Under the pieces are notes generated by a model that made no database searches, was not told the DNA's origin, and saw only the letters and a program-made list of their open reading frames with translations. 64,000 nt of DNA from Escherichia coli (lineage in GTDB: Bacteria > Pseudomonadota > Gammaproteobacteria > Enterobacterales > Enterobacteriaceae). Below are positions 8,777-48,310 of the stretch, piece after piece; within the stretch, counting starts at the first letter, position 1, and every line of letters begins with the position of its first letter. Both the position numbers and the translations under genes were made by a program. The stretch is taken from the NCBI RefSeq assembly GCF_050920415.1, contig NZ_CP169309.1; one strand, 5' to 3'.

Positions 8777-8810
8777 AAGATCGTGCAAATTCAATATATT
8801 GCAGGAAGTA

Positions 8811-8841
<31 letters not shown>

Positions 8842-8871: not shown

Positions 8872-10119
<1,248 letters not shown>

Positions 10120-10143
10120 AGTTTTGCCTTTGCTATCAGTCTC

Positions 10144-10170
10144 AAGGGCCGCGAAAGCGGCCCTTTTTTA
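10144..10170 (+). terminator. hairpin aagggccgcgaaagcggccc + T run (copy 2 of the tktA-proximal hairpin)
   Basis: Identical stem-loop to 8691-8710, here followed by TTTTTT; overlaps stop codon of the convergent SPFH gene. Confidence 0.5.
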
Positions 10171-11076
10171 CTTAGTAGAGATAAACGGAACTGTACTGCC
10201 GGGGATCATGGTATCGGGTAGCTTACCGTCCCAACGCTCAGCAGTGGTGAGGGCAACAAGTCCGGGATTATCCCGCAGAGCTTCACCGCGCAGGCGGATC
10301 GCTTCTGCTTCAGCCGCACTTTTTAAACGAATAGTTTCAGCCTCTGCCGCGCCTCTTACGCGAATAGTCTCAGCTTCTGCTTTGGCTGCCGCTAGTTTAC
10401 TGTCTGCTTCTGCCTGGGCCTGAGTTACCGCTATTTGCGCCTGGATTTTCTCTGTTTCCAGATTTTGCTTACGTGTGGCAATGGCGACTTCTGCTTTCAT
10501 TCGATCTTCAATCGATTTTTCATAAGCGTCAGAAAAATCAATATTTTCAATCTGGACACCATCAATCACCACCGGGCCAACAACGGCTTTACGCATTGCA
10601 TTTTGCAGATCCTGAACCAGTTTTGTACGATCCTGTACCGCGCTGATGGCGGTATATTGGCCGAAAACGTTCTCCAGTTGAGTTGGCAACTGACGGACAA
10701 TCAGACGATCTTTTAATGCTTCAATGGTGTTGTAGGTGGTATAAACCGCGCCTGCTTCTGAAGGTTTAATGTGGAAGCTGACTGATACTGTCATTTGTGC
10801 CGGTTGCTGGTCGCGGCTGTAGGCCTGTAATCCCTGATAAACCACAGCCTGATTACGCGTGGAAATTTTCTCTACGCTTTCCATAAAAGGGATCTTAAAA
10901 CCCAGACCCGGCTCGGCAACTTTTACGATTTTTCCGTAGCGCAGCAAAATGCCGCGTTCACCTTCATTAACGGTGTAATACGAGAGAAATGGCAGCACAA
11001 CCACGGTAAGCACGCCAATGGCGATAGCAATAGATTTTTGTGGGCGAAATGAGGTTATTGAAACAGGCGCTTTCAT
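10168..11076 (-). CDS. SPFH/band-7 (prohibitin/HflC-like) membrane protein (302 aa)
   Basis: ORF track; N-terminal hydrophobic segment, band-7 core, Ala/Glu-rich coiled-coil C-terminus; AT-rich 375-bp upstream region. Confidence 0.8.
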   Translation of the reverse strand: MKAPVSITSFRPQKSIAIAIGVLTVVVLPFLSYYTVNEGERGILLRYGKIVKVAEPGLGFKIPFMESVEKISTRNQAVVYQGLQAYSRDQQPAQMTVSVSFHIKPSEAGAVYTTYNTIEALKDRLIVRQLPTQLENVFGQYTAISAVQDRTKLVQDLQNAMRKAVVGPVVIDGVQIENIDFSDAYEKSIEDRMKAEVAIATRKQNLETEKIQAQIAVTQAQAEADSKLAAAKAEAETIRVRGAAEAETIRLKSAAEAEAIRLRGEALRDNPGLVALTTAERWDGKLPDTMIPGSTVPFISTK

Positions 11077-11451
11077 GAGAATCTTCCTTGAGTAAAGTGT
11101 GGGAATATGTCACATGAGGTGAGGAGAAAACAGCCAACAGGTGAGAATTCAGAATCTATAAAGGGGGAGAGCGAAAAACATCGGCTAAAAAAGTATGTTT
11201 TCGAACATTCAATAGATAAATAGAGATATGCATCACAAATACATAGGCAGATAAAACATTGGTTTTGTGATAAACATAACAAACACAAACTTGACTTTAT
11301 AAGTATAAATTTCATGTTGTTGTTATTTAACATTTTATTATTTTGGTTCATGTTTTTTTTCTTCTCGCGTGCCCAATTGCTTTCATTAAATCGCACGAGT
11401 ATTTTATTTTTACCGCCGGACGGTACCCTAAAAATAAAATAAGGATAATTT

Positions 11452-11895
11452 ATGCGGCTTATTGATTATTTTCCAGAATCATCAATCTCAGTTATACATT
11501 CAGCAAAAGATTGGCAGGAAGCTATCAATTTCTCGATGGCATCATTGCTGGATAAAAACTATATCAGCGAGAATTACATTCAGGCTATTAAAGATTCCAC
11601 CATTAACAATGGCCCTTATTATATTCTCGCACCAGGCGTGGCAATGCCTCATGCGCGACCGGAATGTGGGGCGCTTAAAACCGGGATGTCTTTGACGTTA
11701 CTTAAACAAGACGTTTATTTTCCGGGGAATGACGAACCGATTAAATTACTTATCGGTCTTTCTGCTGCTGATGCCGATTCGCACATTGGCGCTATTCAGG
11801 CGTTAAGTGAATTGCTGTGCGAAGAAGAAATACTTGAACAACTCTTAACTGCAACATCAGAAAAACAATTAGCGGACATTATCAGCCGCGAATAA
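11452..11895 (+). CDS. cmtB: PTS mannitol-type EIIA component (cryptic) (147 aa)
   Basis: ORF track; PTS EIIA-2 family. Confidence 0.85.
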   Translation: MRLIDYFPESSISVIHSAKDWQEAINFSMASLLDKNYISENYIQAIKDSTINNGPYYILAPGVAMPHARPECGALKTGMSLTLLKQDVYFPGNDEPIKLLIGLSAADADSHIGAIQALSELLCEEEILEQLLTATSEKQLADIISRE

Positions 11896-11922
11896 TGACT
11901 CTCTCCTCTACAGGATAATATT

Positions 11923-13311
11923 ATGGAAAACAAGTCTGCTCGTGCAAAGGTCCAGGCTTTTGGGGGCTTTTTGACGGCAATGGTCATCCCCAATATTGGT
12001 GCTTTTATTGCCTGGGGTTTTATTACTGCATTATTTATTCCTACTGGTTGGCTGCCTAACGAACATTTCGCCAAAATTGTCGGCCCGATGATTACCTATT
12101 TATTGCCCGTAATGATTGGTTCTACCGGTGGCCATTTAGTCGGCGGTAAACGCGGCGCAGTCATGGGCGGAATAGGGACAATTGGTGTAATCGTCGGCGC
12201 AGAGATTCCGATGTTCCTTGGCTCAATGATCATGGGACCGTTAGGTGGGCTGGTCATAAAATATGTCGATAAGGCACTGGAAAAACGCATACCTGCTGGT
12301 TTTGAGATGGTTATCAATAACTTCTCATTAGGTATCGCTGGGATGCTCCTTTGTCTGCTGGGTTTTGAAGTTATCGGCCCGGCGGTGTTAATTGCCAATA
12401 CTTTCGTCAAAGAGTGTATTGAGGCGCTGGTACATGCGGGCTATCTGCCTTTGCTGTCAGTCATCAATGAACCGGCGAAAGTGCTTTTCCTCAATAACGC
12501 GATAGATCAGGGCGTCTATTACCCGTTGGGGATGCAACAGGCTTCAGTTAACGGTAAATCCATCTTCTTTATGGTGGCGTCCAACCCTGGGCCTGGCTTA
12601 GGACTGCTGCTGGCGTTTACTTTGTTTGGTAAAGGGATGAGTAAACGTTCTGCGCCCGGGGCGATGATTATTCACTTCCTCGGTAGGATCCACGAACTGT
12701 ATTTCCCGTATGTGCTGATGAAGCCGCTGACCATTATTGCCATGATTGCCGGCGGTATGTCTGGCACCTGGATGTTTAACTTACTGGACGGTGGTCTGGT
12801 GGCTGGTCCAAGTCCGGGGTCTATCTTTGCTTACCTTGCACTGACGCCGAAAGGCTCGTTCCTGGCGACAATTGCCGGTGTTACGGTAGGTACCCTGGTG
12901 TCCTTTGCTATCACTTCCGTAATACTGAAGATGGAAAAAACGGTGGAAACGGAGAGCGAAGATGAGTTTGCGCAGTCCGCCAATGCGGTTAAGGCGATGA
13001 AACAAGAAGGTGCATTCTCGTTAAGCCGTGTTAAGCGTATTGCCTTTGTTTGCGATGCGGGAATGGGCTCCAGCGCGATGGGCGCAACCACCTTCCGTAA
13101 GCGCCTGGAAAAAGCGGGGCTGGCAATAGAAGTAAAACATTACGCGATAGAAAACGTGCCTGCGGATGTGGATATCGTCGTTACTCACGCTAGTCTGGAA
13201 GGGCGCGTGAAACGTGTGACGGATAAACCGCTGATATTGATTAATAACTATATTGGCGATCCCAAACTCGACACTTTATTTAATCAATTAACCGCTGAAC
13301 ATAAAAACTGA
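11923..13311 (+). CDS. cmtA: PTS mannitol-type EIICB component (cryptic) (462 aa)
   Basis: ORF track; multi-TM EIIC followed by EIIB domain. Confidence 0.9.
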   Translation: MENKSARAKVQAFGGFLTAMVIPNIGAFIAWGFITALFIPTGWLPNEHFAKIVGPMITYLLPVMIGSTGGHLVGGKRGAVMGGIGTIGVIVGAEIPMFLGSMIMGPLGGLVIKYVDKALEKRIPAGFEMVINNFSLGIAGMLLCLLGFEVIGPAVLIANTFVKECIEALVHAGYLPLLSVINEPAKVLFLNNAIDQGVYYPLGMQQASVNGKSIFFMVASNPGPGLGLLLAFTLFGKGMSKRSAPGAMIIHFLGRIHELYFPYVLMKPLTIIAMIAGGMSGTWMFNLLDGGLVAGPSPGSIFAYLALTPKGSFLATIAGVTVGTLVSFAITSVILKMEKTVETESEDEFAQSANAVKAMKQEGAFSLSRVKRIAFVCDAGMGSSAMGATTFRKRLEKAGLAIEVKHYAIENVPADVDIVVTHASLEGRVKRVTDKPLILINNYIGDPKLDTLFNQLTAEHKN

Positions 13312-19356: not shown

Positions 19357-19386
19357 CAGCGCGCTTTTAGAGCACGCATTTTTTCA

Positions 19387-19513
19387 TACTCTAAATAATT
19401 CGAGTTGCAGGAAGGCGACAAGAGAGTGAATCCCCAGGAGCTTACATAAGTAAGTGACTGGGGTGAGCGAACGCAGACGCAGCACATGCAACTTGAAGTA
19501 TGACGAGTATAAG
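19387..19513 (+). repeat. ERIC/IRU repeat (~127 bp)
   Basis: Contains gtgaatccccaggagcttacataagtaagtgactggggtgagcg; inverted copy at ~31327-31453. Confidence 0.8.
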
Positions 19514-19537
19514 GCCCGACGATACAGGACAAGAGAC

Positions 19538-20617
19538 ATGTCTAAGATTTTTGATTTCGTAAAACCTGGCGTAATCACTGGTGATGACGTACAGAAAGTT
19601 TTCCAGGTAGCAAAAGAAAACAACTTCGCACTGCCAGCAGTAAACTGCGTCGGTACTGACTCCATCAACGCCGTACTGGAAACCGCTGCTAAAGTTAAAG
19701 CGCCGGTTATCGTTCAGTTCTCCAACGGTGGTGCTTCCTTTATCGCTGGTAAAGGCGTGAAATCTGACGTTCCGCAGGGCGCTGCTATCCTGGGTGCGAT
19801 CTCTGGTGCGCATCACGTTCATCAGATGGCTGAACATTATGGTGTTCCGGTTATCCTGCACACTGACCACTGCGCGAAGAAACTGCTGCCGTGGATCGAC
19901 GGTCTGCTGGACGCAGGTGAAAAACACTTCGCTGCTACCGGTAAGCCGCTGTTCTCTTCTCACATGATCGACCTGTCTGAAGAATCTCTGCAAGAGAACA
20001 TTGAAATCTGCTCTAAATACCTGGAGCGCATGTCCAAAATCGGCATGACTCTGGAAATCGAACTGGGTTGCACCGGTGGTGAAGAAGACGGCGTGGACAA
20101 CAGCCACATGGACGCTTCTGCACTGTACACCCAGCCGGAAGACGTTGATTACGCATACACCGAGCTGAGCAAAATCAGCCCGCGCTTCACCATCGCAGCG
20201 TCCTTCGGTAACGTACACGGCGTATACAAGCCGGGTAACGTTGTTCTGACTCCGACCATCCTGCGTGACTCTCAGGAATATGTTTCCAAGAAACACAACC
20301 TGCCGCACAACAGCCTGAACTTCGTATTCCACGGCGGTTCCGGTTCTACTGCTCAGGAAATCAAAGACTCCGTAAGCTACGGCGTAGTGAAAATGAACAT
20401 CGATACCGATACCCAATGGGCAACCTGGGAAGGTGTTCTGAACTACTACAAAGCGAACGAAGCTTATCTGCAGGGTCAGTTGGGCAACCCGAAAGGCGAA
20501 GATCAGCCGAACAAGAAATACTACGATCCGCGCGTATGGCTGCGTGCCGGTCAGACTTCGATGATCGCTCGTCTGGAAAAAGCATTCCAGGAACTGAACG
20601 CGATCGACGTTCTGTAA
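19538..20617 (+). CDS. fbaA: fructose-bisphosphate aldolase class II (359 aa)
   Basis: ORF 19454-20617 trimmed to ATG giving MSKIFDFVKPGVITGDD. Confidence 0.95.
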   Translation: MSKIFDFVKPGVITGDDVQKVFQVAKENNFALPAVNCVGTDSINAVLETAAKVKAPVIVQFSNGGASFIAGKGVKSDVPQGAAILGAISGAHHVHQMAEHYGVPVILHTDHCAKKLLPWIDGLLDAGEKHFAATGKPLFSSHMIDLSEESLQENIEICSKYLERMSKIGMTLEIELGCTGGEEDGVDNSHMDASALYTQPEDVDYAYTELSKISPRFTIAASFGNVHGVYKPGNVVLTPTILRDSQEYVSKKHNLPHNSLNFVFHGGSGSTAQEIKDSVSYGVVKMNIDTDTQWATWEGVLNYYKANEAYLQGQLGNPKGEDQPNKKYYDPRVWLRAGQTSMIARLEKAFQELNAIDVL

Positions 20618-20640
20618 GTCATTCCTTTCTGCTTATCTCA

Positions 20641-20667
20641 AGGCCCGCTCTGCGGGTCTTTTTTTCG
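20641..20667 (+). terminator. fbaA terminator (hairpin + T7), copy 1
   Basis: aggcccgctctgcgggtc followed by ttttttt. Confidence 0.6.
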
Positions 20668-20681
20668 CCAAAAGAAAAAAT

Positions 20682-20779
20682 GCCTGATGCGCTACGCTTA
20701 TCAGGCCTACACGTATCCTGCAATATATTGAATTTGCAGGTTTTTGTAGGCTGGATAAGGCGTTAAAGCCGCATCCAGT
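20682..20779. repeat. BIME: REP - L motif - inverted REP; contains an unoccupied IS621-type target ATCAGGC-CT-AC at ~20700-20710
   Basis: gcctgatgcgctacgcttatcaggcctac + cctgcaatatattgaatttgcagg + tgtaggctggataaggcg...; same arrangement as the site occupied by the IS at 8814-10094. Confidence 0.75.
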
Positions 20780-20807
20780 ATGACAAATCGCACATTGCTA
20801 TCTGTCT

Positions 20808-20832
20808 GAGGCCCGCTCTGCGGATCTTTTTT
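20808..20832 (+). terminator. near-identical second copy of fbaA terminator hairpin + T run
   Basis: aggcccgctctgcggatc + tttttt; ~48-bp direct repeat flanking the BIME. Confidence 0.5.
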
Positions 20833-20974
20833 CACCAAAAGCAAGGTGATGCAGATGAGAAATCTGTGATCTATTTGGCAAAATTATGCTTTATTGTTTA
20901 CCCTTGTCAGACTGCCCGTCATAAGGCGGCGGAGTGTATTTCTCCATTTTGAGTCAGTTGAAAAGGAATATTGA

Positions 20975-21835
<861 letters not shown>

Positions 21836-21973
21836 TCAACGCTGAGGCCAGATAATACTCTCTGGCCTCTCTCTTATTAGTTTTTCTGATTACCAATTAA
21901 TATTATCAATTTCCGCTAATAACAATCCCGCGATATAGTCTCTGCATCAGATACTTAATTCGGAATATCCAAC

Positions 21974-22609
21974 GTGTTTTCTTATTACTTTCAAGGTCTT
22001 GCTCTTGGGGCGGCTATGATCCTGCCGCTCGGTCCACAAAATGCTTTTGTGATGAATCAGGGCATTCGTCGTCAGTACCACATTATGATTGCCTTACTTT
22101 GTGCTATCAGCGATTTGGTCCTGATTTGCGCCGGGATTTTTGGTGGCAGCGCGTTATTGATGCAGTCGCCGTGGTTGCTGGCGCTGGTCACCTGGGGCGG
22201 CGTAGCCTTCTTGCTGTGGTATGGTTTTGGCGCTTTTAAAACCGCAATGAGCAGTAATATTGAGTTAGCCAGTGCCGAAGTCCTGAAGCAAGGAAGATGG
22301 AAAATTATCGCCACCATGCTGGCAGTGACCTGGCTGAATCCGCATGTTTACCTGGATACTTTTGTGGTGCTGGGTAGCCTTGGGGGGCAGCTTGATGTTG
22401 AACCAAAACGTTGGTTTGCGCTCGGGACAATTAGCGCCTCTTTCCTCTGGTTCTTTGGTCTGGCTCTTCTCGCAGCCTGGCTGGCACCGCGTCTGCGTAC
22501 GGCAAAAGCACAGCGCATTATCAATCTGGTAGTGGGATGTGTTATGTGGTTTATTGCCTTGCAGCTGGCGAGAGACGGTATTGCTCATGCACAAGCCTTG
22601 TTCAGTTAG
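21974..22609 (+). CDS. argO: arginine exporter, LysE family (211 aa)
   Basis: ORF track; GTG start. Confidence 0.9.
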
Positions 22610-22701
22610 GCGCTATCTGATGGAAAAATAAAACAGAGGCGCTAAGCTTGCCTCCAGAGGTCCTGAATTTTGGGCAAGTCAATTAACACGGAGAGACTAA
22701 C

Positions 22702-23442
22702 GTGAAGTTCAAAGTTATCGCCCTGGCGGCATTAATGGGTATTAGCGGGATGGCAGCGCAGGCTAACGAATTGCCGGATGGACCGCATATTGTCACCTCC
22801 GGTACGGCAAGCGTGGATGCGGTGCCAGACATTGCCACTCTTGCGATTGAAGTCAACGTGGCCGCGAAGGATGCCGCTACTGCCAAGAAACAGGCGGATG
22901 AGCGCGTCGCACAATACATTTCCTTCCTTGAACTCAATCAGATCGCGAAAAAAGATATCAGCTCAGCGAACTTACGCACCCAGCCAGATTATGATTATCA
23001 GGATGGTAAAAGTATCCTGAAAGGCTACCGCGCAGTGAGAACGGTGGAAGTCACGCTCCGTCAGTTAGACAAACTGAATTCCTTGCTGGATGGTGCGCTG
23101 AAGGCGGGTCTTAACGAAATTCGTTCTGTATCGCTGGGCGTGGCGCAGCCGGATGCCTATAAAGACAAAGCGCGTAAGGCAGCGATTGATAACGCGATTC
23201 ATCAGGCGCAGGAACTGGCGAACGGCTTTCATCGTAAACTAGGGCCGGTATATAGCGTGCGCTACCATGTTTCCAACTATCAGCCCAGCCCAATGGTGCG
23301 GATGATGAAAGCCGATGCCGCGCCGGTCTCAGCCCAGGAAACTTACGAGCAGGCTGCTATTCAGTTTGATGATCAGGTCGATGTGGTCTTCCAGTTAGAA
23401 CCTGTGGATCAACAACCCGCTAAAACACCTGCCGCACAATAA
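22702..23442 (+). CDS. yggE: periplasmic oxidative-stress protein, DUF541/SIMPL family (246 aa)
   Basis: ORF track; signal peptide. Confidence 0.85.
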   Translation: MKFKVIALAALMGISGMAAQANELPDGPHIVTSGTASVDAVPDIATLAIEVNVAAKDAATAKKQADERVAQYISFLELNQIAKKDISSANLRTQPDYDYQDGKSILKGYRAVRTVEVTLRQLDKLNSLLDGALKAGLNEIRSVSLGVAQPDAYKDKARKAAIDNAIHQAQELANGFHRKLGPVYSVRYHVSNYQPSPMVRMMKADAAPVSAQETYEQAAIQFDDQVDVVFQLEPVDQQPAKTPAAQ

Positions 23443-23609
23443 TACTTGTAGCCCGACGTATTGGTCGGGCTAATGCCTTTACCCGATATTGCCTCCTTTT
23501 TCTGTAATTTTCTGTAAAACCATGACGTAATCACCTATCTTTGCTCGCGGTTTCATCAAGGATAGGCTGACTGAAACGGTTAAGCGGACAAGGATGCGGG
23601 GGAGCGGGG

Positions 23610-24506
23610 ATGGACATTTTTATTTCGAAAAAGATGCGCAATTTCATTTTATTAGCGCAAACCAATAATATTGCCCGGGCGGCAGAAAAAATCCATATGA
23701 CGGCTTCGCCATTTGGCAAAAGCATTGCCGCGCTGGAAGAACAAATTGGCTATACGCTATTTACCCGCAAAGATAATAATATCAGCCTCAATAAAGCCGG
23801 GCAGGAACTGTATCAAAAACTGTTCCCGGTTTATCAACGGCTTTCTGCGATTGATAATGAAATCCATAACTCAGGACGTCGTTCACGAGAAATTGTGATA
23901 GGCATAGATAATACTTATCCGACCATTATTTTTGATCAGTTGATTAGTCTCGGAGATAAGTACGAAGGCGTGACCGCTCAGCCAGTTGAGTTCAGCGAAA
24001 ACGGCGTTATCGATAATCTTTTTGACCGTCAGTTAGATTTTATAATCTCCCCACAGCATGTATCTGCACGAGTTCAGGAACTGGAAAACCTGACTATCAG
24101 TGAACTACCACCGCTGCGATTGGGCTTTCTCGTTTCTCGCCGTTATGAAGAGCGACAAGAGCAAGAGTTGCTTCAGGAGCTACCCTGGCTACAAATGCGC
24201 TTTCAGAACCGGGCCAACTTCGAAGCAATGATTGATGCGAATATGCGTCCTTGTGGGATCAATCCCACCATTATTTATCGACCTTACAGTTTTATGGCCA
24301 AAATCAGCGCCGTGGAGCGCGGACATTTTCTGACGGTGATCCCGCATTTTGCCTGGCGACTGGTGAATCCGGCAACGCTGAAATATTTTGATGCGCCGCA
24401 CAGGCCGATGTATATGCAGGAATATCTTTATTCAATCAGAAATCATCGTTATACCGCCACGATGCTTCAGCATATTGCTGAAGATCGTGACGGGACGAGT
24501 CATTAA
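23610..24506 (+). CDS. ygfI: LysR-family transcriptional regulator (298 aa)
   Basis: ORF track; convergent with scpC, stop codons overlap. Confidence 0.8.
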   Translation: MDIFISKKMRNFILLAQTNNIARAAEKIHMTASPFGKSIAALEEQIGYTLFTRKDNNISLNKAGQELYQKLFPVYQRLSAIDNEIHNSGRRSREIVIGIDNTYPTIIFDQLISLGDKYEGVTAQPVEFSENGVIDNLFDRQLDFIISPQHVSARVQELENLTISELPPLRLGFLVSRRYEERQEQELLQELPWLQMRFQNRANFEAMIDANMRPCGINPTIIYRPYSFMAKISAVERGHFLTVIPHFAWRLVNPATLKYFDAPHRPMYMQEYLYSIRNHRYTATMLQHIAEDRDGTSH

Positions 24507-25981
24507 CCCAGCATCGAGCCGGTTGCAATTAAATTACGGTGTAAATCGAAGACGTGGCTAAGATCGTGGTGAATATGTCCGCCGGGCGCATTTTCCAGAT
24601 AGCGATGCAGATAATCCCGATACATAGGATGTGCACAATTATCAATGATGGTGCGGGCGCGTTGAAGCGGGGAAAGACCACGCAGATCGGCGATCCCTTG
24701 TTCGGTGATGATCACTTTGACGCTGTGTTCGCTGTGATCAACATGGCTGCACATTGGCACGACGGTTGAGATCTTGCCTTCTTTAGCAATCGACGGGGCC
24801 ATAAAGATCGACAGATACGCGTTGCGTTCAAAATCACCGCTGCCACCGATGCCGTTCATCAGATCGACCCCGGCTACGTGCGTTGAGTTGGCATGCCCGT
24901 AAATATCAAACTCCAGGCCGACGTTCAGAGCGATGACGCCCAGACGACGGATGATTTCCGGGTTATTGGAAATCTCCTGCGGACGCAACACAATGCGGCT
25001 GGCAAAGTAATCCATATTGTCGTAAATCTTGCGCAGGGAATCGGCCGAGATAGTCAGGCTGGAGGCGCTGGCCCCGCTGATTTTGCCCGTTTCCAGTAAA
25101 TGCACCACCGATTCCTGTAGCACTTCCGAATACATCATGAACGGAGGAATTTCCGGGTTTTCCCCTAGTCGCGCCATGACTGCATTATTGATATTGCCCA
25201 CGCCACTTTGCAGCGGCAGAAATTCCGGCGGAATACGCCCATGCGCCATTTCCTGCAACAAGAACGTGACCACGTTATCGGCAATCTGCTGGCACATGGG
25301 ATTTTGCTTATCCAGCATATTACCGGCGTCGGGCAAGTTGGTTTCCACGACGGCGACAATCTTTTTCGGATCGATTTGCACATAGCGGGTACCGACGCGA
25401 TCCATTGCATGGAAGATCGACACGCTATTGCGCCGCGGTGGCGCGCCAGGAATCACAATATCCGCCAGTTCTGCAACGCGCGGATCGTGATAGTGATTGA
25501 GTTCAATGATCACTTTCTTCGCCCGCAGCAGCCAGGTCGGCGCATTACCGATCCCGCTGGTTAACCAGACTCGACCATCCGGTGCCAGTGCCGATGCTTC
25601 AATGACGGCAACATCAATTTCGCCGAAGAAACCGTAATTGACCATTTGCGCCACTTCGCTCAAATGCAGGTCAACGAAACTCACCGCGCCCTGATTGATC
25701 TTTTTACGTAAACCGGACGATGTTTGATATGGCGCACGCCAGGAAACAGCATCGGCGTCAGAAAGTACATCGTCAGCGGCGGCGCTGATTGACGCCCCCG
25801 TCAGTAGGCGGATTTGATACGGCTTTTTGGCCTCATGCTGTTCGTTAGCTCTGCGGGCAATGGCGGTGGGAAGGGCTTTCGGCGAACCCGCCGGGGTAAA
25901 GCCGCTAAATGCCACCATGTCGTTATGCTGGATAATTTCTGCCGCTTCATCGGCGGTCATCCTTGTCCACTGAGTTTCCAT
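24503..25981 (-). CDS. scpC: propionyl-CoA:succinate CoA transferase (492 aa)
   Basis: ORF track; acetyl-CoA hydrolase/transferase family. Confidence 0.9.
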   Translation of the reverse strand: METQWTRMTADEAAEIIQHNDMVAFSGFTPAGSPKALPTAIARRANEQHEAKKPYQIRLLTGASISAAADDVLSDADAVSWRAPYQTSSGLRKKINQGAVSFVDLHLSEVAQMVNYGFFGEIDVAVIEASALAPDGRVWLTSGIGNAPTWLLRAKKVIIELNHYHDPRVAELADIVIPGAPPRRNSVSIFHAMDRVGTRYVQIDPKKIVAVVETNLPDAGNMLDKQNPMCQQIADNVVTFLLQEMAHGRIPPEFLPLQSGVGNINNAVMARLGENPEIPPFMMYSEVLQESVVHLLETGKISGASASSLTISADSLRKIYDNMDYFASRIVLRPQEISNNPEIIRRLGVIALNVGLEFDIYGHANSTHVAGVDLMNGIGGSGDFERNAYLSIFMAPSIAKEGKISTVVPMCSHVDHSEHSVKVIITEQGIADLRGLSPLQRARTIIDNCAHPMYRDYLHRYLENAPGGHIHHDLSHVFDLHRNLIATGSMLG

Positions 25982-26004
25982 TTTTACTCCTTCGTTCGCA
26001 GGGA

Positions 26005-26790
26005 TTAATGACCAACGAAATTAGGTTTACGTTTTTCGAGGAAAGCGTTCATCCCTTCCTGGTAATCTTCGCTGTCATAAACCGCGCGGCGCATCCCCTG
26101 AATACGTTCAAATTCATCGGAGTTCATGGTGTGTGCTTCGCCCAGTACACGCAGTTCTTCTTTGATAACGGCAATGGCTAACGGCGCTTTCTCAGAGATG
26201 TGATGCGCCATTTGTAAGGTGAAATCTTCCAGTTCTTCCACTTCCACAACATGGTTGAGGATGCCGACAGCCAGCGCGCGCTGGGCTGTGATTGGCGAAG
26301 CGGTAAAAATCAGCTCTTTGACAATGTGGAAGCCCGCGTCGCGGGTCAGGTTGTGAATGCCGACCAGGTTATACGGGACGCCGAGGTTTACAGGCGTCAT
26401 TGAGAAGGTTGAGGTACTGGCGGCGATGATCAGATCGGAACTCATGATCATTTCAAATGCGCCCCCCCAAACACTACCTTCCACCATCGAAATGATCGGT
26501 TTCGGGAATTTTTGGATCATGCGGGTGATTTGACGCAACGGATCATCATAGGAGAGCGGATCGCGACCGCCAGACGGCAGTTCGTGAATATCGTGACCTG
26601 CGGAGAAGACTTTGGATCCACTCGGCGTGCGCAAAATGATACAGCGAATTTCCGGCCGGTTGAGATCGCTTAATGCCTGCATAAGATCATCAATAAAAAC
26701 TTTACTTAAGGCATTAAGTTTTCGGCCATAGTTAAACTCAATGACCGCCACTTTGTTGATAGTGACAACGTTCACATACTGATAAGACAT
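26005..26790 (-). CDS. scpB: methylmalonyl-CoA decarboxylase, crotonase fold (261 aa)
   Basis: ORF 26005-26832 trimmed to ATG giving MSYQYVNVVTINKV. Confidence 0.9.
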   Translation of the reverse strand: MSYQYVNVVTINKVAVIEFNYGRKLNALSKVFIDDLMQALSDLNRPEIRCIILRTPSGSKVFSAGHDIHELPSGGRDPLSYDDPLRQITRMIQKFPKPIISMVEGSVWGGAFEMIMSSDLIIAASTSTFSMTPVNLGVPYNLVGIHNLTRDAGFHIVKELIFTASPITAQRALAVGILNHVVEVEELEDFTLQMAHHISEKAPLAIAVIKEELRVLGEAHTMNSDEFERIQGMRRAVYDSEDYQEGMNAFLEKRKPNFVGH

Positions 26791-26800
26791 AAAAATTCCT

Positions 26801-27796
26801 TTAATCAAAATATTGCGTCTGGATAAATTCACTGAGCTGTCGCAGGCCGGTGCGCGGTGAGAGCGTATTGTTTTTGACCGCTAAAAGCGTCTGGCGGTAA
26901 TAACGATCGAAATCTTCATTCGCGAACAGGTGATTCAGTACTTCTTCTTCGGTTTGTTTACGCAGCCATTCCACCGATTGTTGTTGCCGCACTTGCTGTA
27001 AACGACCACTGGCAGTTAGCGCGGTTTTGAAGTCGATGATGGCGTGCCAGATCTCATCGATTCCACGTTTTTCCAGTGCGCTACAAGTCAGAACTCGTGG
27101 CTGCCATTCGTCGTATTTACGTCGCAGAATATGCAGGGCACTCTCGTACATATGCCGGGCAATGGCGACATTGGTATGGTTATCGCCATCGTCTTTGTTG
27201 ATAACGATCAGATCTGCCACTTCCATCAGCCCCTTTTTAATCCCCTGCAGATCATCGCCGCCACCGGCAATTTGCAACGAGATAAAACAGTCCACCATGC
27301 GGGCGACTTCCGTTTCCGACTGTCCGACGCCAACCGTTTCGACAATCACTACGTCATAACCCGCCGCTTCGCATAACAGCATTAATTCCCGCGCTCGCTG
27401 ACTGGCACCGCCCAGATGGCCGGAGGATGGTACCGGGCGAATAAACGCCGCCTCGGCACGCGCCAGGTCATTCATGCGGGTTTTATCCCCGAGAATGCTA
27501 CCGCCAGTGACCGGGCTGCTGGGATCGACCGCAATAACCGCAACCTTTAGTCCCTCACGAATCAACAACATGCCAAAGGCTTCAAGAAAGGTACTTTTCC
27601 CCGCGCCGGGTGTGCCGGTAACACCCAGTCGCAGGGCGTTACCACAGAACGGCATAATGGCATCAAGCAGTTGCGTACTTAGCGCCTGATGACGCGGGTG
27701 ACGGCTTTCCACCAGCGTCATGGCCTGGGCGAGCGTGGCACGCTCACCCTGACGTAAGCGGCGAATACTTTCTGCCAGCGTGGCTTCATTAATCAT
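26801..27796 (-). CDS. argK: MeaB/ArgK-type GTPase, methylmalonyl-CoA mutase chaperone (331 aa)
   Basis: ORF track; P-loop GTPGAGKST. Confidence 0.9.
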
Positions 27797-29933
27797 GATG
27801 CTGGCTTATCAGATTCAGTACGTCGCGCACGCTGTCGAGCATAGGCGTACCTGGACCATAAATCGCCACCACGCCGCGCTCCTGCAGGAAGGCGTAATCC
27901 TGCGGCGGAATGACGCCACCCGCGACCACGCAGATATCTTCGCGTCCCCATTTTTTCAGCGCTTCGACCAGTTCCGGGATCAGCGTTTTATGACCGGCAG
28001 CCAGTGAAGATGCGCCCACTACGTGAACGTCGTTTTCTACTGCCAGGCGGGCGATCTCTTCAGGTGTAGAGAACATCGGGCTTAAATCTACGTCGAAACC
28101 GAGATCGGAATAGGCGCTGGCGATCACTTTCGCGCCGCGATCGTGCCCATCCTGGCCCATTTTGGCGATCAGAATGCGCGGGCGACGACCATTGTCGGCA
28201 AGGAACTGCTCCGTTTGCGCAACAATGGCATCGAACTCGGAGGCCGATTTCTCAGACTGATGATAGCTTTGCGCAATCACGCCGGTAACACACTGGCTTG
28301 GCACCAGATAACGGTCGAAAGCGGCTTCCAGCGCATCGGAAATTTCACCCAGGGTGGCGCGAACGCGAGCGGCATTAACAGCGGCAGCCAGCAGGTTTTC
28401 GTTATGCTGTGCGGCGTGAGTCAGGGCGTTCAACGCGGCGGTTACGGCGGCATCATCACGGGTGGCGCGAATGCGTTCCAGCGAAGCAATTTGCTCGTTA
28501 CGCACCATCACGTTGTCGATCTCAAGTACATCGGTTTCGTCTTCGTGATCCAGTTTGTACTTGTTGACACCAACGATGACACGCTTGCCCTGGTCGATCA
28601 ACGACTGTTCGCGCGCGGAGGCCTCTTCGATCATTCGTTTTGGCAGACCTGCTTCGATCGCTTTCGCCATACCTCCGGCTTCGTCGATCTGTTGGATAAT
28701 GGCTCTGGCTTGTTTGACGATTTGATCGGTCAGCGATTCAACGTAATAGGATCCGGCCAGTGGATCGACGGTGCGGCAGAGTTCTGATTCTTCCTGAATG
28801 ATGATCTGGGTATTGCGGGCAATGCGTGCTGAGAAATCGGTAGGCAAACCAAGCGCTTCATCAAAGGCGTTGGTATGCAGTGACTGAGTACCGCCCAGCG
28901 TTGCAGCCAGTGCTTCAATGGTGGTGCGGATAACGTTGTTATACGGATCCTGTTCAGTCAGGCTCCAGCCTGAGGTCTGGCAGTGGGTACGCAGCGCCAG
29001 TGATTTCGGATCCTGTGCGCCAAATCCACTGACCGCTTCGCTCCATAAATAACGTGCCGCACGCAACATGGCGACGTTCATAAACAGATCCATGCCAATG
29101 CCGAAGAAAAACGACAGGCGAGGAGCGAAGTCATCAATTTTCAGCCCAGCGGAGATTGCTGCTTTGATGTACTCAATCCCATCAGCGAGCGTAAATGCTA
29201 CCTGCTGCACGCAGTTGGCACCCGCTTCACCCATATGGTAACCGCTGATACTGATGGTATTAAAGCGAGGCATGTTGCCAGAACACCAGGCAATGATGTC
29301 AGCAATAATGCGCATTGACGGTTTCGGCGGGTAAATATAGGTGTTGCGGCAGAGATACTCTTTGAGGATATCGTTCTGAATGGTGCCTGTCAGTTTATCG
29401 GGCGTAACTCCTTGCTCTTCTGCGGCGACGATATAAAACGCCAGTACGGGTAACACTGCGCCATTCATGGTCATCGAAACCGACATTTTATCCAGCGGGA
29501 TCTGGTCGAACAGGACTTTCATATCTTCCACGGTGTCGATAGCAACGCCCGCTTTGCCGACGTCGCCCGCCACGCGCGGGTTATCGGAGTCGTAGCCACG
29601 GTGGGTGGCAAGGTCAAACGCAACGGAAAGACCTTTTTGCCCGGCGGCCAGGTTACGGCGATAAAAAGCGTTAGACTCTTTTGCTGTCGAGAAACCGGCA
29701 TACTGACGGATAGTCCACGGTTGGGCGGTATACATAGTGGCACGCGGGCCACGAACGTAGGGTGGCAAACCAGGAAGGGTACCGGTCACTTCCAGATTAT
29801 CGAGATCGGCTTCAGTATACAGCGGCTTGATGGCGATCCCTTCTGCGGTTTGCTGAACCAGCGAGTCGACAGTTTTCTCCCGACGGCTCAATTCCTTGTT
29901 GGCAAGCTGTTGCCACTCCTGCACGTTAGACAT
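27789..29933 (-). CDS. scpA: methylmalonyl-CoA mutase (714 aa)
   Basis: ORF 27789-29954 trimmed to ATG giving [14 protein letters not shown]. Confidence 0.9.
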
Positions 29934-30136
29934 TATTTGCTCCATAAAACGCAATCAAAATGAGGGTATTTGCGCTTACGGTGAGCTTTTTACGTGGGTT
30001 TGTCGCCAGCAAAAAAAATGCATTCAGACGTCGTTTTTTGCCGCCTGAGATTTGTCTATTTTGTGATGTGATTCAAGGAATACAAAAAGAACTGGAGGTG
30101 ATGCCTGGTATGTATTACCAGGCATTATTTGATGGA

Positions 30137-31030
30137 TTATTCCTGACGAAGAACTTTGTGACCATAATCGAGCAACGCATCAGTGACTTTACGCATCATG
30201 CGGCTTTCAGGAGCAAAGCGGTGCCAGTAGAGCATCCGGCGTTGAAATAGCCCTGGCGTTAAGTCAATCAGTTCGCCGCTGGCCAGTTCTTTCTCGATTT
30301 GCAGATGTGGGATCATACAGCAGGTGGTCCCCTGACGAGCAAGTTGCACGAACGCTTCTGAAGAATTAACGATATGGCAGGGTACGCTGCCTGGAGGCAG
30401 ATCAAAGTTTTGCTGCAAAAAGGCCTGGTGCATATCATCAAGATGGTCAAACGCGACCACTGGCGCTTTCAGTAATGCCGAACGCGTTACGCCGTTAGGG
30501 AAATATTTTTCGGCGAACGGTTTTGAGCTGACGAACAGATAGTCGAGCGCACCGAGCTTATCGACAAGACAACTCGGTAGCGCCTGATGTTGAATACTCA
30601 CCGCGCCGACCACTTCGCCGCGACGCAGACGTTCCTGAGTGCGGGTTTCATCTTCTACCTGCAAGTTGAGGCGGATAGGCGAATCAGCTAACACAGGAGC
30701 CAGCGCCGGAAGCAACCACGTCGCCAGACTGTCAGCGTTGACCGCCAGTGAAAGCAGCAGCGGAGTTGAACCGGTTTGTTCATCGCCCAGCCACTCTTCT
30801 TCCAGTAACTCCACCTGGCGTAGCAGTGCCAGCAGTTTTTGCCCTTGTTCCGTCGGGCGCGGCGGTACGGTACGCACCAACAGCGGCTGCCCGAACATAT
30901 TTTCCAGTTGCTTAATGCGCTGTGAGACGGCTGATTGTGTAATGCACAGCTTTTGTGCCGCGCGCTCAAATCCTCGTTCACGTATCACCGCATCCAGTGC
31001 CTGTAATGTTCTGTAGTCCGGGCGTTTCAT
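30137..31030 (-). CDS. argP: LysR-family regulator ArgP/IciA (297 aa)
   Basis: ORF 30137-31096 trimmed to ATG giving [21 protein letters not shown]. Confidence 0.9.
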
Positions 31031-31326
31031 TGCTGTTGTCTGCTCCTGGTAAATGCTTTTTCCTGCACTATGACACAATTTTGCGTCAGGTTGCATATAC
31101 CGAAGCCGTCGGCGGGTACATTTGTATCAGTGGTTAAACACGCAGCTTAAAAGATCAGGGATTTGCGCTATTGCATTTCGCTCAGCGAGTTCGCGCCCTG
31201 GAGCGGCATACCCAGACCTTTATATGCTTTGTTTGCGGGGCGAAAGGGGATGCCCGCTATTGCACGATATTTTATGGATGAGGTAACCACGCGACTTGCC
31301 AACGGGGTCTGAATCGCTTTTTTTGT

Positions 31327-31453
31327 ATATACTCGTCATACTTCAAGTTGCATGTGCTGCGTCTGCGTTCGCTCACCCCAGTCACTTACTTCTGTAAGCT
31401 CCTGGGGATTCACTCTCTTGTCGCCTTCCTGCAACTCGAATTATTTAGAGTAT
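31327..31453 (-). repeat. ERIC/IRU repeat, inverted relative to copy at 19387-19513
   Basis: Reverse complement matches the 19.4-kb copy over ~125 bp. Confidence 0.8.
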
Positions 31454-31490
31454 AATGCGTGTGAAATTTCATACCACAGGCGAAACGATC

Positions 31491-32150
31491 ATGACGCAGG
31501 ATGAATTGAAAAAAGCAGTAGGATGGGCGGCACTTCAGTATGTTCAGCCCGGCACCATTGTTGGTGTAGGTACAGGTTCCACCGCCGCACACTTTATTGA
31601 TGCGCTTGGCACGATGAAAGGCCAGATTGAAGGGGCTGTTTCCAGTTCGGATGCGTCCACTGAAAAACTGAAAAGCCTCGGCATTCACGTTTTTGATCTC
31701 AACGAAGTCGACAGCCTTGGCATCTACGTTGATGGCGCAGATGAAATCAACGGCCACATGCAAATGATCAAAGGCGGCGGCGCAGCGCTGACCCGTGAAA
31801 AAATCATTGCTTCGGTTGCGGAAAAATTTATCTGTATTGCAGACGCTTCTAAGCAGGTTGATATTCTGGGCAAATTCCCGCTGCCAGTAGAAGTTATCCC
31901 GATGGCACGTAGTGCAGTGGCGCGCCAGCTGGTGAAACTGGGCGGTCGTCCGGAATACCGTCAGGGCGTGGTGACCGATAACGGCAACGTGATCCTCGAC
32001 GTCCACGGCATGGAAATCCTGGACCCAATAGCGATGGAAAACGCCATAAATGCGATTCCGGGCGTGGTGACTGTTGGCTTATTTGCTAACCGTGGCGCGG
32101 ACGTTGCGCTGATTGGCACACCTGACGGTGTCAAAACCATTGTGAAATGA
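31491..32150 (+). CDS. rpiA: ribose-5-phosphate isomerase A (219 aa)
   Basis: ORF 31455-32150 trimmed to ATG giving [18 protein letters not shown]. Confidence 0.95.
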
Positions 32151-33839: not shown

Positions 33840-33990
33840 AAAGCCCTCACCGAAGCGAGGGCTTGAAGGAGAAGGGTTATGATGCGACTCGTCATCATAC
33901 TGATTGTACTGTTACTCATAAGTTTCCCAGCTTATTAACAGTCAGTCACAGGGGAGGAGCAATCCTCCCTTACCCTTACTCACTAAATTA
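33840..33990 (-). ncRNA. sibC: Sib-type antisense sRNA (antitoxin) overlapping ibsC; ends approximate
   Basis: Established arrangement for Ibs/Sib loci; hairpins flank the ibs ORF on both sides. Confidence 0.45.
33879..33938 (+). CDS. ibsC: type I toxin Ibs, 19-aa hydrophobic peptide
   Basis: Manual translation MMRLVIILIVLLLISFPAY; below ORF-track size cut-off. Confidence 0.65.
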   Translation: MMRLVIILIVLLLISFPAY

Positions 33991-34038
33991 GGTCAAAGAA
34001 TCAACGATGTCAATCAGGGCGATGCAGGTGTGTCGCCC

Positions 34039-34659: not shown

Positions 34660-34845
34660 AGGGAATCTCCGAGATGCCGCCGCAGGCTGTAACCCTTGAA
34701 CCCTTGGTTCAAGGTGAATGTGTCGTCACAGTTTTAAGGCTTCTCGGACGGACCGAGCATGCTCACCAACCGCGGAGCGCCACATTCTTGTGGTATGAAA
34801 TATCGGCTCAGGGGACTGGCCCGCTTGCGAACATCTCAGAGAAAT
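34660..34845 (-). ncRNA. ssrS: 6S RNA
   Basis: Reverse complement reads atttctctgagatgttcgcaagcgggccagtcccctgagccgatatttcatacc...ggagattccct, matching my recollection of E. coli 6S RNA. Confidence 0.9.

Positions 34846-48144: not shown

Positions 48145-48310
<166 letters not shown>

Follow-up and report, generated by a model that had tools for sequence, protein, structure and literature searches.

When two near-identical repeats lie in opposite orientation some 12 kb apart in a bacterial genome, do they act as a pair, or is their arrangement incidental? The question is raised by a stretch of 64,000 nt from Escherichia coli (contig NZ_CP169309.1 of assembly GCF_050920415.1), hereafter called the window, in which one ERIC element lies upstream of fbaA (copy A) and another, in opposite orientation, upstream of rpiA (copy B). 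ERIC, also known as IRU, is a 127-bp MITE (a miniature transposable element with inverted repeats) of enterobacteria, whose description is said to go back to Hulton et al. in 1991 and to Sharples & Lloyd in 1990. The original prediction on the window saw in the pair a potential substrate for inversion of the segment between the copies. The comparative analysis points elsewhere: A and B probably arrived by two separate insertion events, their inverted arrangement being incidental and the pair being no inversion switch. What is added to the prediction is that copy B is a rare, apparently young insertion, which abuts the conserved −10 hexamer of rpiA and exists in three size forms.

Two ordinary ERIC elements

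A search for repeats identifies two inverted arms, at 19386-19511 and 31328-31453, of 126 nt each and 99% complementary, with 11,816 nt between them; the runner-up inverted repeat within the 15-kb region has 42 nt and 71%. Alignment and direct comparison of the arms show agreement at 125 of the 126 positions, and the single internal mismatch is in the apical loop, which has the sequence CATAAG in copy A and CAGAAG in copy B. The presence of ERIC copies in opposite orientation upstream of fbaA and rpiA had been predicted correctly, with coordinates within 1-2 nt of those given here. Their near-identity also holds on proper alignment, since one mismatch per 126 nt is anything but low identity. 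The elements and their variable base are as follows.

19386..19511, + strand: ERIC copy A, in the pgk-fbaA intercistronic spacer, fixed in E. coli (inverted-repeat arm, primers, hairpin, junction survey)
31328..31454, − strand: ERIC copy B in its short form (127 bp), which lies upstream of rpiA as a rare insertion allele (inverted-repeat arm, empty site in K-12 and O45:H2, junction survey)
19447, + strand (T, in A), with 31392 as the corresponding position in B (equivalent of G): variant base of the apical loop (alignment)

Membership in the ERIC family was established by primer matches, fold, and terminal repeats; Rfam is silent on both copies, as a scan with Rfam 15 gives no match on A or B at the gathering threshold, and there is apparently no ERIC model in that database. 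The ERIC-PCR (polymerase chain reaction) primers ERIC1R and ERIC2, with sequences taken from PMC3696847, match copy A at 22/22 and 22/22 positions and copy B at 21/22 and 22/22, with no match expected by chance. On the + strand, copy A has a predicted RNA hairpin of −48.8 kcal/mol (z = −7.9), which also forms when the whole pgk-fbaA spacer is folded, and copy B has a predicted fold of −37.8 kcal/mol (z = −4.8). The ends of copy B carry the terminal inverted repeat TATACTC...GAGTATA; the ERIC family is one of MITEs that have TA at their termini, carry terminal inverted repeats of 7 bp, and duplicate their target site (PMC2229807; PMC3184786). Both copies are genuine, ordinary ERIC elements. A looser search for the core motif finds no third ERIC copy in the window. 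Per E. coli genome, ERIC has a median of 5 megablast places and is multicopy, dispersed, and intergenic; further sites include ettA-sltY, chpB-ppa, preT-yeiS, the region upstream of gyrA, and a site near ybhM.

A fixed copy and a rare one

The distribution of each copy was surveyed in 5,426 complete E. coli genomes, using junction-specific queries of 86 nt, composed of 43 nt of ERIC arm and 43 nt of unique flank. Of these genomes, 5,414 have the junction between copy A and the fbaA leader, and copy A is an old and fixed resident of the pgk-fbaA spacer. An ERIC with 71-79% identity is also found in this spacer in Kosakonia, Raoultella, Enterobacter sp. 10-1, and Entomohabitans, among the loci listed; most genera have a spacer of 90-100 nt without ERIC. 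Either an old insertion followed by losses or a repeated use of the same spacer would account for this distribution.

The junction of copy B with the rpiA leader is present in 66 genomes (1.2%). In 57 of them the left flank is the usual argP-yqfE' arrangement, and in the remaining nine an intact LysR-family gene stands in place of yqfE'. The carriers include the widely used enteropathogenic E. coli strain E2348/69. K-12, O157:H7, CFT073, and Shigella, which Wilson and Sharp are said to have compared in 2006, are not among the carriers found here. No ERIC is found upstream of rpiA in the loci of 80 other Enterobacteriaceae species among the matches listed (with no other Escherichia species among them), nor in the GTDB E. 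coli representative.

A clean empty site, the state of most strains, is found in K-12, in an O45:H2 strain, and in 2017-02-2CC, where the sequence reads ...TTTTTTTGTA/TATAATGCG..., that is, GTA/TATAATGCG around the point of insertion. The filled allele reads GTA-(TATACTCG...AGAGTATA)-ATGCG, a net gain of 123 bp over the empty GTA-TATA-ATGCG, and the insertion junctions are identical in every B allele examined. The boundary of the insertion is marked by one further feature.

31328..31331, no strand: TATA at the left boundary of the insertion, where the one TATA of an empty site has become two, at either end of B (alignment of empty and filled alleles)

A TATA at both ends together with the net gain of 123 bp fits a MITE targeting TA or TATA, and the length of the target-site duplication is ambiguous, 2 or 4 bp. 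The duplication was also sought at a second locus, preT-yeiS (A25 compared with K-12), where the flanks are too diverged around the site to be read. Strain-specific ERIC insertions are on record for E. coli, with 14 extra ERICs in non-K-12 strains (Wilson & Sharp 2006, as cited in PMC10969869).

Origin and age of copy B

Mean pairwise diversity was compared among 11 carriers of B. It is 0.0054 for B itself, 0.034 for the left 135 nt, 0.017 for the right 700 nt, and 0.012 for copy A. B alleles are thus 3-6 times less diverse than their flanks, and A evolves at roughly the rate of its own. Low diversity suggests that B is younger than the haplotypes carrying it, and copy B would accordingly be a young, rare insertion allele.

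Since a single base separates the two copies of the window, one may ask if B was copied directly from A, its neighbour 12 kb away, through transposition or gene conversion. In B-less genomes of the K-12 type, copy A is indeed what the outer arms of B match best, with 100% identity. However, the allelic variation of the two copies does not follow this scheme. All B alleles examined have G in the loop and all A alleles have T. Among 12 E. coli loci compared for A, several variants are found in A only, namely CCCATGAGC in E2348/69, AST215, and VCSW7, CCCCTGGAGC in 2013C-4282, and two changes in EC42405; these strain-specific variants are absent from the B of the same genome and were never carried into it. 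B also occurs as 197- and 275-bp forms at the same junctions, with internal modules that A lacks, and the arms of long ERICs at other loci are as similar to B as the arms of A are. Local copying from A is therefore unlikely, and separate arrival of the two copies is preferred. Their near-identity in the window is explained by the window A being the commonest A allele sampled (identical in 4 of the 12 loci), B being that sequence with one loop change. Near-identical MITE copies within one genome need hence not derive from each other.

Two related ideas were tried and rejected. Concerted evolution, or homogenisation, of A and B is excluded by the A-specific variants missing from B. The loop G is not a unique marker of B, as the same G core is found in 305 genomes, including the ERICs of ettA-sltY and chpB-ppa; its presence at other loci indicates a recurrent polymorphism and gives no proof of a single origin.

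A second alternative, that B goes back to the ancestor of E. coli and was precisely excised from ~99% of the genomes, is improbable, more so than local copying. It would account for the many divergent flanking haplotypes on which B is found, including the intact-LysR arrangement, and for filled and empty alleles on near-identical flanks (VCSW7 and PCN033 agree at 99.9% of 1,040 nt, and 2013C-4282 and 2017-02-2CC have their local haplotype in common). Against it stand the absence of B from the 80 other species listed and from the GTDB representative, the low diversity of B relative to its flanks when that of A is close to its own, and the empty sites, which are the majority in every haplotype class sampled.

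The haplotypes nevertheless count against the simplest form of a young insertion. B is found on at least six flanking haplotypes, among them the ancestral-looking arrangement with the intact LysR gene, so that a single recent insertion would require either that B later spread by recombination or that a hotspot was hit repeatedly, both of them putative processes. What fits best is a single gain with recombinational spread, or else repeated insertion at a TATA hotspot.

The pair and inversion

If the pair were a working RecA-dependent inversion substrate for the 12-kb segment, one would expect structural variants among related strains. The arms are suitable in principle: they are inverted, have 126 nt with one mismatch, and this length exceeds the minimal homology for RecA recombination. 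The inverted arrangement was sought in the same genomes with a synthetic junction in which the ERIC stands between 400 nt from the pgk 3' end and 400 nt of argP-side sequence in reverse complement, an inversion being called in a genome at a query coverage of >=80%. None of the 5,426 genomes carries this junction at that coverage, even though 66 have both arms and hence could invert; the best matches are the two native halves, at 57% each. Inversion would also flip the orientation of several genes and cut off fbaA, an essential glycolytic gene, from the epd and pgk promoters, its only mapped ones to judge from PMC2759082. Furthermore, A and B keep their own allele-specific variants, with no trace of exchange. 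The predicted role as an inversion substrate is thus not supported, and it is about as improbable as an ancestral B. In conclusion, no fixed structural variation is attributable to the pair. A reservation applies, in that assemblies show the majority arrangement and only the 66 genomes could invert; inversion may therefore occur at low frequency in cultures. As an inversion substrate the pair matters little, ERICs being textbook repeats and inversion not being observed.

Copy B and the rpiA core promoter

In all of the 80 Enterobacteriaceae loci listed, a TATAAT is found 36-51 nt upstream of the rpiA ATG, nearly always as TATAATGCG, and many of these loci have in common a GGGACA motif 17-18 nt further upstream. 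The corresponding elements in the window are the following.

31451..31456, + strand: TATAAT, probable rpiA −10, regenerated by the right end of B and its flank (conservation)
31305..31310, + strand: GGGTCT, presumed native hexamer at the −35 position, 17 nt from the −10 in empty alleles (alignment of K-12 and the window)
31429..31434, + strand: CTGCAA within ERIC B, speculative candidate for a replacement −35, with a 16-nt spacing and 3/6 matches to TTGACA, a score under the cutoff of the consensus promoter scan (read from the sequence)

Strong comparative evidence points to the TATAAT at 31451-31456 as the −10 hexamer of rpiA. GGGTCT, which corresponds in position to the conserved GGGACA of other genera, is pushed 123 bp away from it by copy B. 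Since B ends at the conserved −10, it would lie upstream of the likely transcription start, and it is probably located in the rpiA core promoter rather than in the 5' untranslated region. The proposed sequence of events is that B was inserted into the TATA that immediately precedes and overlaps the conserved −10; that the insertion rebuilt TATAAT; and that the ERIC terminus took over the native −35 region. rpiA would then most likely be transcribed in this strain from a hybrid promoter, or by read-through from upstream.

Two points weigh against this placement. The literature searched gives no experimental start site for rpiA, so that the position of B in the promoter is drawn from conservation alone, and a consensus promoter scan makes no sigma-70 call in either the empty or the filled rpiA allele. 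The latter result is explained by both −35 hexamers being weak, and the scan cannot rank the alleles. If the placement is correct, the deeply conserved core promoter of a gene of an essential pathway is interrupted by a MITE in ~1% of the strains, and the natural empty, short, medium, and long alleles of rpiA provide a direct test of ERIC termini as promoter parts.

Copy A in the epd-pgk-fbaA transcript

The prediction had also suggested that ERICs in 5' untranslated regions affect mRNA stability. This is plausible for one copy only, as B is upstream of the likely rpiA start. For A, 5' RACE (rapid amplification of cDNA ends) showed no transcription start within the 214-nt pgk-fbaA spacer, fbaA being served by the promoters of epd and pgk further upstream (PMC2759082), and copy A hence appears to be an intercistronic element of the polycistronic epd-pgk-fbaA mRNA. 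ERICs of Yersinia are cited as using an RNase E site to modulate how stable the mRNA is with which they are co-transcribed (De Gregorio et al. 2005, as cited in PMC2229807, PMC3184786, and PMC10969869). By analogy, an effect of this type of copy A on the epd-pgk-fbaA transcript is plausible.

That the RNAs of A and B pair in trans and so couple glycolytic and pentose-phosphate gene expression, an idea suggested by fbaA and rpiA being both on the + strand with opposite elements and therefore having co-directional transcripts complementary over 126 nt, is extremely improbable, as B is probably outside the rpiA transcript, each ERIC folds stably on itself (−48.8 and −37.8 kcal/mol), and ~99% of the E. 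coli genomes dispense with such coupling by lacking B.

Size forms at the B site

Copy B is found in three sizes. The 127-bp form is present in the window and in 57 other assemblies, a 197-bp form in strain 06-00048, and a 275-bp form in four E2348/69 assemblies, AST215, VCSW5, and VCSW7. All three have the same junctions and the same loop G, and the additional length comes from two hairpin-rich modules, of ~71 and 78 bp, at symmetric internal positions. AST215 (long) and C4 (short) have identical flanks over 2,179 bp to the left of the element and 855 bp to its right. Long and short alleles on identical flanks suggest that size switching is fast relative to point mutation, at least locally.

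Derivation of the short B from the long one by a single deletion is ruled out at the module-1 site, where GCG-TT-CGCTC in the short form stands against GCG-GGTTA...TTTGT-CGCTC in the long one, as no single contiguous deletion yields TT. What this suggests is either conversion of one ERIC copy with another as template or a dedicated mechanism of insertion and excision. Long ERICs with ~70-bp internal insertions at fixed positions were reportedly described by Sharp in 1997 and by Cromie et al. in 1997, and the B site allows one to test how these internal modules come and go, a question left since the 1990s.

Polymorphic long ERICs nearly identical to the long B, with loop T, are found upstream of gyrA in SMS-3-5 and ~30 other genomes, and the same long loop-T form is present at preT-yeiS in A25 and near ybhM in PT62. 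Their positions, in the coordinates of the fetched loci, are given below.

L096, 1501-1775: long ERIC at the gyrA locus
L097, 1501-1775: long ERIC at the preT-yeiS locus
L098, 1501-1746: long ERIC at the ybhM locus

These elements suggest that the long ERIC form, too, has been mobile within E. coli. The joint proposal that ERICs have been mobile recently, that B splits the −35 and −10 of rpiA and rebuilds the latter, that it measurably changes rpiA expression, and that modules of ~70 bp are gained and lost in place is put forward tentatively, and its holding in all parts is rather doubtful.

Gene context of the segment

Gene names in the window were taken over from colinear annotated E. coli chromosomes with 98.6-99% identity. 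At positions 17761-44857 the window has ~97-98% identity to K-12 and 96-97.5% to E2348/69, and at the rpiA junction MFDS1022581 and N96 are the complete genomes nearest to it, with 100% identity over 926 nt. The gene order is pgk, A, fbaA, mscS, argO, yggE, srsR/ygfI, scpC, scpB, argK/meaB, scpA, argP, yqfE', B, rpiA. The genes said to be bracketed by the pair were named correctly, but fbaA itself and the pseudogene remnant yqfE' also lie inside.

[quoted passage not shown]
19538..20617, + strand: fbaA, with its ATG 26 nt downstream of copy A
19512..31327: segment between the arms, 11,816 bp, with fbaA-mscS-argO-yggE-srsR/ygfI on the + strand, scpC-scpB-argK/meaB-scpA-argP on the − strand, and the yqfE' remnant (open reading frames, colinear genomes)
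31491..32150, + strand: rpiA, with its ATG 36 nt past the end of copy B

The yqfE' remnant, a LysR-fragment pseudogene at 31090-31327, between argP and copy B, differs among strains through insertions and deletions: compared with K-12, 89 bp are missing from the window and 45 bp from O45:H2, and 2013C-4282 is short of a further 24 bp. The intact LysR gene is kept in its place in strains such as VCSW7, SMS-3-5, and PCN033, and the argP-rpiA interval of VCSW7 contains, with the intact LysR gene, genes for an azoreductase, a BhsA-like protein, and a ferredoxin reductase. In E2348/69 (10098-12006 of its locus), scpC, scpB, argK, and most of scpA have been lost, and its ERIC copies are for this reason only ~7.3 kb apart.

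The fbaA-mscS spacer (20618-20974) contains a unit of ~168 bp in duplicate, with the marker AGGCCCGCTCTGCGG(G/A)TCTTTTTT at 20641 and 20809, and an Rfam match to ES036/CssrF at 20703-20745 on the − strand. It has 357 nt in the window and 190 nt in other strains, and in strain RMDEC465 an IS621 is inserted in it. Elsewhere in the window, Rfam matches at 33863-34013, 34662-34845, 48150-48227, and 8777-8820 correspond to Sib RNA (with ibsC), 6S RNA, naRNA4/CssrE, and a second ES036/CssrF, respectively. Many genera have an ERIC ~10 kb downstream of rpiA (18.7-20.5 kb of the fetched loci), which has no counterpart in the window.

Comparison with known systems

Known inversions between insertion sequence (IS) elements, rrn operons, or prophages resemble the present pair in that homologous inverted repeats flank a chromosomal segment. 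They differ in that the arms here have only 126 bp, that no inverted variant is found in the 5,426 genomes, and that the product would orphan an essential gene.

The Yersinia ERICs that affect mRNA stability provide a parallel for copy A, which would likewise be an intercistronic ERIC hairpin within a polycistronic mRNA. However, the Yersinia effect depends on orientation, its data come from Yersinia, and B is probably not transcribed with rpiA.

The long ERICs reportedly described in the 1990s have modules at fixed internal positions, and those of the 197- and 275-bp forms of B are at two symmetric ones; no description was found of what is seen here, three sizes at one orthologous site.

In hybrid promoters formed by IS elements or MITEs, such as those of the promoter-bearing Correia elements (PMC3184786), the −10 is intact and new upstream sequence is supplied, and the putative arrangement at rpiA is alike in both respects. 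At rpiA, in contrast to these systems, the ERIC terminus is only a candidate promoter part, and the candidate −35 matches at only 3/6 positions.

The insertions of Wilson & Sharp 2006 and copy B are alike as presence/absence polymorphisms of ERIC at otherwise conserved intergenic sites. Finally, both copies agree with the ERIC/IRU family in their size, imperfect palindrome, and ERIC1R/ERIC2 core, as well as in the 7-bp TATACTC/GAGTATA ends, the TA(TA) termini, and their intergenic, multicopy nature. From this family copy A shows no difference, and copy B differs only in being a rare allele that abuts the −10 hexamer of a core promoter.

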